From Chloroflexota bacterium (GTDB lineage: Bacteria; Chloroflexota; Anaerolineae; Anaerolineales; Villigracilaceae): DNA of 64,000 nucleotides. The stretch's first letter is position 1. Every line of letters begins with the position of its first letter. The notes under the pieces were generated by a model. It had not been told where the DNA came from. It saw only the letters and a list, made by a program, of their open reading frames with translations, and did no database searches. Below, piece by piece: positions 52,169 through 54,462 of this stretch. Location of the stretch: assembly GCA_013388685.1 (NCBI GenBank), contig JACAET010000048.1, positions 17,552 to 81,551 on the forward strand, in the 5' to 3' direction. Position numbers and translations under genes: made by a program.

Positions 52169-53718
52169 GGAAATGTGTCGGGATTTTGCACTCGACAATG
52201 GATGGCAAGTCATTGCAGAATTAGCCGAAGATGATCGTGGTGCATCCGGCGCTTCATTTGAATTACCTGAACTTAATCACGCACGCGATATGGCGCAAAA
52301 AGGGGCGTTTGATGTATTGGTGGTTCGCGAGATTGACCGCCTCAGTCGTAAACTTGCGAAGCAACTTATCGTTGAAGAGCAATTGAACCGGGCCGGTGTC
52401 GAAGTTGTTTATGTTCTCGCCAGCTACGAGAACTCGCCGGAAGGGCGTTTGAACAAGCATATTCGTGCGACTATCGCTGAATACGAACGTGAAAAAATCG
52501 CCGAACACATGGTTCGCGGCAGGCGGCAGGTGGTCAAAAACGGGAAGATTATGCTTCACGGAAATACGCCCCCATTTGGTTATCGCTTATCAGAGGATGG
52601 AAAAAATTTGGTGATTCATGAAGAGGAGGCAGCAGTCGTACAATTGGTTTACACATGGTATGTGGAAGGAGATGAAAAAGGTCGGCGCCTATCCACACGC
52701 GAGATTTCAAAGCGACTCACCCAAATGAGGGGTCCCACTTGGGCAGGCCTGCATGGGATGTTCAAAAAGCGCGGGAAAGGGGAATGGTCAGGGAGACTCG
52801 TGTATCGAATTTTGCAATCAGAGACATATGCTGGACACTGGCACTATGGAAAACGTAACACTTTCGGAGGTTACCACAAGCCCAACGCACACGAATGGTG
52901 GCTGGCATTTAACGTGCCTCCTATTGTCTCTGAGGAAATGTGGGAGAAAGCTAATCTTCAGCGAAAGGCAAATGTAAGTGTCTCCAAACGCAATATAAAA
53001 CGTGAATACTTACTGAGAGGACGTATCCGATGTGGTCTGTGTCATACCAGCGTCAATTGCTATGCTACCGTGCCTCATGAAAGGAAACTGTACCTGTATT
53101 ACAAGTGTAATGCCCTCATGGGGAACATCGCCAACGTGAAGTGTCCTCTCCCAATCTTTCGCGTAGATGTTGTCGATAAGTTGGTCTGGGATTGGGTGAA
53201 GGCGCTTCTTACTCAACCGGGAACTCTGGAAACTGGGCTTGCAGAATATCAAGAAAGCCGAGAACAATTCATTGCACCCATCCGTGATCGTTTGCTTGTT
53301 CTCGATGATCTTTTGCAGGACTCGAAGAGTCAACTGGACCGCGTACTTGACCTGTATATTTCTGGTGACATTCCAAGAGGATTGTTGATTGATAAGAAAC
53401 AGCAATTAGAAACCACCCTAACCTCGTTGGAGAAAGAACGCGACGATTTGAATCTGAATTTGGAAACAGAAACCATAACAGAAAAAGACATCCAGCAAAT
53501 TCGTGAGTTTGCTTTACATATTGCGGAAGGATGGGGCCTGGAAATGAAACCTTTGATGATCGGCGACGCGTGATTGAGTTACTAGATGTTGGCGCTTTAA
53601 TGACTGTAGAAGACGGTCAAAAATTCATTGATATATGGTGTTTTCTAGGTCGAAACAAGCTATCGGTTGGGACAACTAGTTCTCAAAGTGAGGCGTTCTC
53701 CAAAAATTGTCAACGCTC
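50182..53718. mobile_element. Decayed serine-recombinase integrative element remnant carrying an RHS gene
   Basis: A large serine recombinase abuts the truncation point of yyaL. Both cargo genes are 5'-truncated and frameshifted, and the recombinase and RHS C-terminus are visibly AT-richer than the flanks. The left boundary is not defined. Confidence 0.7.
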
Positions 53719-53794
53719 GACCACATCATACAGTCCGCCGCGTGACATTGCACTCAATGCATGGGTGACAGCCTTTATGATTTGTTCACGTTGA
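52167..53794 (+). pseudogene. Large serine recombinase (resolvase, recombinase, zinc ribbon, coiled coil) lacking the catalytic N-terminus; frameshift near 53530
   Basis: DRLSR, PFGYR, RILQSETYAG, PPIVSEEMW, RCGLC and YYKC. There is no YxRVS motif. The C-terminal FDDRRRVIELLDV lies in a shifted frame (ORF 53531-53794). Confidence 0.85.
53690..53745. other. Putative attL/attR hybrid site (crossover about 53717-53721)
   Basis: The yyaL frame matches the family up to GGLYDVV, then diverges (GTC GAG CGT TGA instead of the expected V-G-G-G-F) and stops. Confidence 0.6.
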
Positions 53795-54462
53795 GTTGTA
53801 TCCGTGGTTGCGCGGCGTAAGAGAAATTCGATGGTCATGGGCTGTGGAAACTTCGGCGCCGAACCCCAGCCGCCATATCCCCAATCGTACACATCGAGCA
53901 GATTCCCGACAGGCATTTCGAGCGCCTCTTTGGTGATTTCATGCCGATTCCCGGGTTTGCCCGTGGGTGTACGAATTTGCGCGAGGACCTGACTGCCAAC
54001 TCGATCCACTTCCTGCGTATCGTTCCGCCATGCCCTGTCAATCCCCGCGAGAACTTCCAGGAAGGATGGCATGTTATAGCGCCGCGCAGGCGGAAAGTAT
54101 GTCCCGGCGAAAAAGGGACACAAATCGGGCGTGAGGAAGACCGACAGGGGCCATCCGCCGGAACCGGTCATGGCAAAGGCGGCTTGCATGTAGATGGCAT
54201 CGAGATCGGGACGTTCCTCGCGGTCCACCTTGATGTTGACGAAGCGCTCATTCATAAAGGCGGCGGTTTCGGGGTTTTCGAAGGATTCATGCTCCATCAA
54301 GTGGCACCAATGACAGGCGGCATAGCCGATGGAGAGAAAGATCGGTTTGTTTTCCGTTTTGGCTTTTGACAGGGCTTCATCTCCCCACGGATACCATTCT
54401 ACGGGATTGTTTGCATGTTGAAGAAGGTATGGGGAGGTTTCGTTTTTCAAGCGATTGGGCAT
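53710..54462 (-). pseudogene. yyaL: YyaL/SPATA20-like thioredoxin-domain protein, 3'-truncated (250 aa)
   Basis: [46 protein letters not shown] and APKFP. It ends at YDVVER*, whereas family members are about 680 aa. Confidence 0.88.

Follow-up and report, generated by a model that had tools for sequence, protein, structure and literature searches.

Within the stretch of DNA analysed here (the window, 64,000 nucleotides), the remains of a large serine recombinase (LSR) gene run tail-to-tail into the shortened end of a yyaL gene, and this arrangement raises the questions of whether an element was inserted into yyaL by this enzyme, at which site, and what became of it afterwards. The genome that contains the window (G000) is a MAG of 63 contigs, 97% complete, and all the genomes used for comparison are also MAGs. 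From the analysis described below, positions 52167-54462 are very probably what remains, as a fossil, of the attL end of an integrative element of conjugative type from Anaerolineales (Chloroflexota), which would have been inserted by its LSR at the H-F-E-K motif of yyaL and later destroyed. The features of the locus are listed in Table 1.

Table 1. Features of the window around the yyaL/recombinase junction, with window positions and the evidence for each.
Feature	Position	Strand	Evidence or remarks
tatA	49946..50137	+	Pfam TatA_B_E; host genes of the left flank (fabF-fabH-tatA, conserved) end here
RHS-family gene fragment, 5'-truncated	50182..52168	-	TIGR03696 Rhs_assc_core, 54 bits
Large serine recombinase gene remnant	52167..53679	+	Pfam Resolvase (partial), Recombinase, Zn_ribbon_recom; alignment with the G178, G215 and L070 copies
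attL element-side arm (P')	53650..53679	-	Conserved in 12 other attL junctions, host arm variable
attL common core, yyaL H-F-E-K codons 265-268	53680..53690	-	Switch between host-type and element-type bases
Predicted crossover dinucleotide GA	53684-53683	-	Base-type switch and centre of the attP dyad
yyaL N-terminal fragment, codons 1-268 of about 684	53680..54462	-	Domain and DNA alignment
pnp (polynucleotide phosphorylase)	54590..56884	-	Pfam RNase_PH, KH, S1, PNPase; flank beyond attL, outside the element
rpsO	57082-57435		Ribosomal_S15; flank beyond attL, outside the element

The yyaL open reading frame of the window (53710-54462, minus strand) codes for 250 amino acids and is an N-terminal fragment with a complete DUF255/Thioredox_DsbH domain (PF03190). 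It is truncated, because the yyaL frames of relatives of the same genus run to 681-745 amino acids. The alpha-toroid C-terminal domain (about 420 amino acids), which is present together with the DUF255 domain in both the native yyaL genes of relatives and the full-length spare copies described below, is missing from the window gene, where only PF03190 is found. The original prediction had located the insertion in the conserved GGxYDxxGGGF motif of yyaL and considered this motif as the attB site, on the grounds that the reading frame terminates two codons past GGLYDVV (stop codon at 53710-53712) and that the 3' end of the recombinase gene abuts this point. The end of the frame and the converging gene are as described, but yyaL itself is not broken there. 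When the DNA was aligned with three full-length relatives and with copies of this junction that are still intact, 20 bp, corresponding to the GGGFSRY codons, proved to be absent between 53717 and 53718, which shifts the frame. The homology to yyaL resumes past this gap and continues for 38 nt, as far as 53680. A later 20-bp deletion, by shifting the frame, has thus produced the stop that follows GGLYDVV, and this stop does not mark the junction with the element. Host and element meet at 53680-53690, within the conserved motif that comes next, 30 nt leftwards of the stop. Furthermore, in 12 other genomes the reading frame of the N-fragment passes through GGGFSRY to H-F-E-K and stops at a TAG that belongs to the element. 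The candidate GGxYDxxGGGF was thus refuted as attB by both the DNA alignments and the junctions of other genomes, and an integration there, with its attB half just upstream of 53716, retains practically no probability. The actual site is centred on the H-F/Y-E-K codons 265-268, and the 27-nt sequence formerly quoted as an attB half falls outside the att site, since the boundary is at 53680-53690.

A scan of species-representative genomes yielded 15 loci whose recombinases share 65-100% identity with the query, 14 of them labelled Anaerolineales/Chloroflexota (including Candidatus Villigracilis) and one labelled Verrucomicrobiota. At every locus with readable DNA beyond the 3' end of the recombinase gene (13/13), the opposite strand carries a yyaL N-fragment with its end at codon 267/268, a coincidence of position that is far beyond chance. 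Between genomes the host arm of attL shows synonymous differences, in contrast to the conserved element arm, which provides the closing TAG; in the window this TAG lies within the P' arm (53676-53678), and in the intact copies it closes the reading frame of the N-fragment. The block 52167-54463 of the window aligns as a whole with G178 (85.7% DNA identity) and G215 (83.9%), where the recombinase is intact. The general part of the original prediction, an LSR element whose integrase gene borders the att site and which integrated site-specifically in a conserved coding motif of yyaL, is supported by these junctions. The inspection of homologues' flanks that it had proposed gave neither unrelated targets nor a break of varying position, the recombinases with 65-100% identity all splitting yyaL at the same codon. 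A more distant homologue (47% identity) in G048 stands tail-to-tail with a truncated class-V aminotransferase gene instead of yyaL, and because this homologue uses another gene, the yyaL-specific clade of recombinases has been set at 65% identity or above. In that genome (L036:5722-7972) the recombinase gene overlaps an aminotransferase gene that is cut near residue 221 (full length about 370), and the two probably constitute a further recombinase-target pair with this architecture.

The other end of the element, attR, with a yyaL C-fragment from codon 264/265, has been found in at least 10 genomes. The C-fragment adjoins tatA in G215, G178, G001 and G010, and a C-fragment with the same start is located directly downstream of a full-length yyaL in G219, G220, G221, G223 and G224, as well as in the more distant elements of G226 and G227; G014 retains only a trace of it. 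Both ends are present on one contig of G215, in the order fabF-fabH-tatA, C-fragment (from codon 265), 77-bp spacer, full-length yyaL, about 127 kb of further DNA, recombinase and N-fragment. The order tatA, C-fragment and full yyaL is repeated in G001, G010 and G178, and the full-length gene lies 77-90 bp inside attR. In G178, an insertion sequence with terminal inverted repeats of about 15 nt and a target duplication of 3-4 nt is located between the spare yyaL and attR, breaking the assembly (L045:10900-11061 and L046:1-150, end of contig C12 and start of C47).

When the N-arm and the C-arm of G215 are joined, a seamless native yyaL (attB) is obtained, which matches the uninterrupted tatA-adjoining genes of G006, G017, G002 and G048. 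Joining of the element-side arms gives attP, with 13/19 (G215) or 16/19 (G219) symmetric positions around the GA dinucleotide, about 5/19 being expected by chance. The P' arm of the window forms an imperfect inverted repeat with the P arm at attR of other genomes (12-16 of 19 positions). In attL the bases are of host type to the left of GA and of element type to the right, and the reverse is found in attR, so that the exchange would be confined to this dinucleotide. The attL and attR sites share only an imperfect common core of 11 nt, with no long direct repeats. The attP site is placed inside the recombinase reading frame, and the predicted protein would have 561 amino acids in the excised state and 571 in the integrated one. 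No free attP junction or excised form was detected in metagenome contigs (two patterns) or viral contigs; since excised circles are seldom present in assemblies, this does not indicate that the element is inactive.

From these sites, a mechanism can be proposed in which the recombinase would recombine attP, at the 3' end of its own gene, with attB inside yyaL, the exchange taking place at the GA of the Glu codon in the conserved P-H-F/Y-E-K-M motif (codons 265-268). Integration would split yyaL, leaving the N-fragment tail-to-tail with the recombinase (attL) and the C-fragment at the far end (attR), and the complete spare yyaL carried by the element inside attR would keep the host supplied with a working copy.

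The N-fragment could alternatively be cargo of the mobile element and not host DNA, as the 2.3-kb block of recombinase plus N-fragment is the only part common to the window, G215 and G178, and the flanks past the N-fragment differ. However, the region upstream of yyaL lacks synteny between any of the genomes, including those with an intact native yyaL, so these differences are uninformative. In addition, the N-fragment is much more diverged than the recombinase and follows the host clades, and together with the C-arm it makes up the seamless native gene, which renders the cargo origin extremely improbable. The N-fragment is thus regarded as host DNA. Since the upstream flank is non-syntenic, the extent of the element has been taken from one genome, G215, in which attL and attR are on one contig.

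The full-length yyaL copies next to attR constitute a tight clade, termed E-type, with 84-93% identity across G001, G010, G014, G215 and G178, and five further genomes contain E-type copies 90-93% identical to that of G001. The identity of the E-type genes to the native genes of the genus is only 55-75%. The split fragments group with the native genes instead: the N- and C-fragments of G215 show 87% and 80% identity to G006, and the identity of the C-fragment of G010 is 91%. G178 belongs to another genus, and its native fragments, which group with that genus, have only 64-68% identity to those of genus g1, although its recombinase is 96% identical and its spare yyaL 88-91% identical to those of G215. 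Because the recombinase and the spare are far more alike than the native fragments of their hosts, the element and its spare yyaL are concluded to move horizontally, and the junctions to be repeated independent insertions at a single site.

A single ancient insertion inherited vertically, with the shared junction reflecting common descent, would also predict the observed grouping of N-fragments by host genus. It is contradicted by recombinases and spares that share 84-96% identity between hosts with native fragments of only 64-68% identity, by congeneric genomes that have an uninterrupted native yyaL at the same locus, and by the insertion in the window, which sits in a different (E-type) allele. 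Moreover, many C-fragments are still open (about 429 codons), which would be unlikely after long neutral decay. Vertical inheritance is accordingly considered very unlikely, and repeated insertion is maintained as the explanation. The open N- and C-fragments of many genomes could indicate that excision regularly restores the native gene.

The tolerance to yyaL loss, which had been deduced from the broken window gene, applies to the window genome only. A tblastn search with a full-length relative against the whole 97%-complete assembly found no yyaL C-part, and a family search found no second PF03190/DUF255 gene in the same assembly. As only the N-fragment is present in the whole assembly, the window gene is not merely split by an intact element, and the genome appears to be devoid of a functional yyaL. 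Intact elements, on the contrary, bring a full spare yyaL, which argues that loss of this gene is normally not neutral. In G001, G010 and G014 the spare is now the only working yyaL. In G222 (Ca. Villigracilis proximus), only the N-fragment adjoining the recombinase was present in the assembly, with neither spare nor C-fragment, possibly a second case of complete yyaL loss or a consequence of missing contigs. In G215, the spare yyaL and the native N-fragment, 131 kb apart, are preceded by almost identical sequences of about 90 bp (L044:16070-16160 and L035:11952-12045) although their coding parts are only 72% alike, which suggests gene conversion or a shared promoter cassette.

The recombinase gene of the window is a remnant. 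It reads in frame over 52131-53573 and then, past a frameshift, in the frame 53531-53794 (plus strand), the frameshift being a 1-nt deletion (a missing T after 53531). Homology to the intact copies begins at 52167, at about codon 29, so that the start, promoter and catalytic serine are absent. The Pfam Resolvase match starts only at profile position 21, and the Y-A-R-V-S-S motif lies within the missing 28 codons or so. The intact recombinases are frames of 571-587 amino acids beginning M-K-T-I-K-R-A-V-L-Y-A-R-V-S-S, and those of G215 (L035:9557-11272) and G178 (L034:9671-11434) match the Resolvase profile from 1 to 144 with the serine motif present. The PF07508 and PF13408 domains are found in both the window remnant and the G215 recombinase, PF13408 scoring 26.9 bits in the window and 24.9 in G215, just below the cut-off of 25.3. 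The copy in the window is a fossil attL, and its recombinase, with the catalytic serine missing and a frameshift, cannot act as a working partner.

On the left side of the locus, synteny of the window with G001, G010, G014, G215, G178, G017, G048 and G002 stops at 50171/50172, and in the relatives tatA is followed by a yyaL C-fragment or an intact yyaL. In the window, the position expected for attR, the spare yyaL and the yyaL C-fragment is filled by an RHS-family fragment that ends 10 nt from the tatA terminator. This fragment is composed of PT-rich linkers, a YD repeat, the RHS core and a short C-terminal tail, with an internal frameshift near 51970-52000 (three-frame reading). Its homologue in G010 is part of a frame of 2932 amino acids, and the similarity extends to 52168. 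The region 52160-52175 is a head-to-head fusion of two 5'-truncated genes, similarity to the RHS homologue (minus strand) ending at 52168 and that to intact recombinases (plus strand) starting at 52167. In the window genome, a deletion or rearrangement would have fused codon 29 or thereabouts of the recombinase gene to the RHS fragment, with loss in the same event of the body of the element together with its spare yyaL and the C-fragment. The 1-nt frameshift in the recombinase gene and the 20-bp deletion in the orphan N-fragment would have occurred afterwards.

This succession from tatA through the RHS fragment to codon 29 could instead be a mis-assembly, with the genome still holding the rest of the element including the spare yyaL; the MAG consists of 63 contigs, and the RHS genes are repeated in the genus, repeats being a cause of chimeric joins. 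This would be at odds with the lack of any yyaL C-part or second PF03190 match anywhere in the 97%-complete assembly. Moreover, the RHS stretch matches only one other segment of G000, at 70% identity, and two further independent lesions (the 1-nt and 20-bp deletions) already mark a decaying locus. A chimeric join is unlikely, and a genuine loss of the element is the preferred reading.

In the tree, the N-fragment of the window falls inside the E-type clade (support 96/91) on a long branch, and a count from the sequences gave 28 of 30 nt next to the GA dinucleotide matching the E-type copies. As both the N-fragment and the host arm are of E-type and not of native type, it is quite conceivable, and perhaps slightly favoured, that the element landed in the spare yyaL of an earlier element. 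For this origin the tree and the host-arm sequence were more informative than a comparison of promoter regions. A more tentative extension, somewhat short of being favoured, is that the family would be both self-compensating and self-renewing, since the spare carries a fresh attB and the next element may land in the cargo of the previous one. The window would then represent a second-generation hit, and the later loss of the second element would have left the genome without yyaL.

The contents of the intact element were analysed in G215, a genome from groundwater, where it occupies 131 kb (contig C6, about 25,941-157,152). Its interior has almost no counterpart in the window genome, and about 30 kb adjoining the recombinase are shared between G215 and G178. 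Among the 40 open reading frames scanned (of about 105), genes for conjugation were found, namely a TraG/VirD4-type coupling protein (T4SS), an AAA_10 (VirB4-like) ATPase and a T2SSE/VirB11-like ATPase. Other genes were involved in replication or partition (ParA, a DnaA_N protein, a family-B DNA polymerase and a DnaB-like helicase) or in metal resistance and restriction/defence (two P-type metal ATPases, an MmeI-type methylase with SNF2 helicases, and a STAND NTPase). Neither a relaxase nor a recombination directionality factor was identified among these 40 of about 105 reading frames. The interior fits the profile of a putative integrative conjugative element. The window retains nothing of the conjugation module. 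G215 and G178 have in common the replication/partition module, which adjoins the recombinase (L061:9399-11540, L061:3497-4306, L035:3135-6693), which is unusual for a conjugative element.

Compensation for damage to the target gene is known from other systems. Phages e14 and 21 at icd, as well as elements with tRNA-targeting integrases, bring a replacement for the displaced gene end; these use tyrosine integrases and insert near the 3' end, and a short terminal piece is replaced in frame. Both these elements and the Anaerolineales family compensate the damage to the target, but in the latter a serine recombinase acts at codon 267 of about 684 and the compensation is a separate complete gene. 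The same enzyme class is found in SCCmec/CcrAB at rlmH and in the cyanobacterial fdxN element/XisF. In NCBIfam, the best matches of the window recombinase reading frame were CcrB, XisF and CcrA, all below threshold (111 and 72 bits against equivalog cut-offs of 900 and 375, respectively), so that the enzyme is not a member of these families, and the targets differ. The nearest solved structures are TP901-1 integrase and SPbeta SprA (YokA), with E values of about 1e-11.

A resemblance is also offered by the Firmicutes elements SPbeta/SprA in spsM, skin/SpoIVCA in sigK and the A118-type phages of Listeria in comK, in which, like here, the LSR gene is at the edge of the element and the insertion occurs mid-gene at a short site. 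Their recombinases have the same architecture of Resolvase, Recombinase and zinc ribbon domains, SprA being among the nearest solved structures mentioned above. However, the sequence similarity is only distant, and both the target and the host phylum differ from yyaL and Chloroflexota. In addition, the Firmicutes elements are not known to carry a spare of the split gene, whereas the Anaerolineales family carries a full one, and gene-restoring excision is documented for the former and may occur in the latter.

Clusters of LSRs with a single conserved target site inside a coding gene, such as Mg-chelatase/comM-type or prolyl isomerase genes, have been described (Durrant et al. 2022, PMC10083194). 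As in those clusters, diverged recombinases (65-100% identity here) share one conserved site in one gene family. A switch of specificity between clusters is typical, and the 47% identical homologue of G048, with its class-V aminotransferase, corresponds to this pattern. The main text of PMC10083194 makes no mention of yyaL/DUF255 or thioredoxin, and a literature search for yyaL or DUF255 as the target of a serine recombinase or integrase gave nothing relevant.

The comparison provides a natural set of LSR, attB and attP, predicted at single-dinucleotide resolution from 14 independent junctions. The motif targeted is highly conserved, in a gene that occurs in bacteria, archaea and eukaryotes (SPATA20 family), and the hosts belong to a little-studied phylum. 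The bargain between host and element is unusual, a mid-gene insertion being repaid with a whole spare gene. This would explain the 'duplicated' or fragmentary yyaL genes and the contig breaks a few kb from the recombinase in Villigracilaceae-type MAGs, as well as the absence of yyaL from the window genome. The window copy itself is dead and useful only as a marker, its value being that it points to a recombinase/attB/attP family with a whole-gene spare.

In addition, a REP- or MITE-like repeat, about 100 nt long and with 75-97% identity, is dispersed over more than 20 contigs of G000 and also occurs beside yyaL in G001 (L012:14653-14814).
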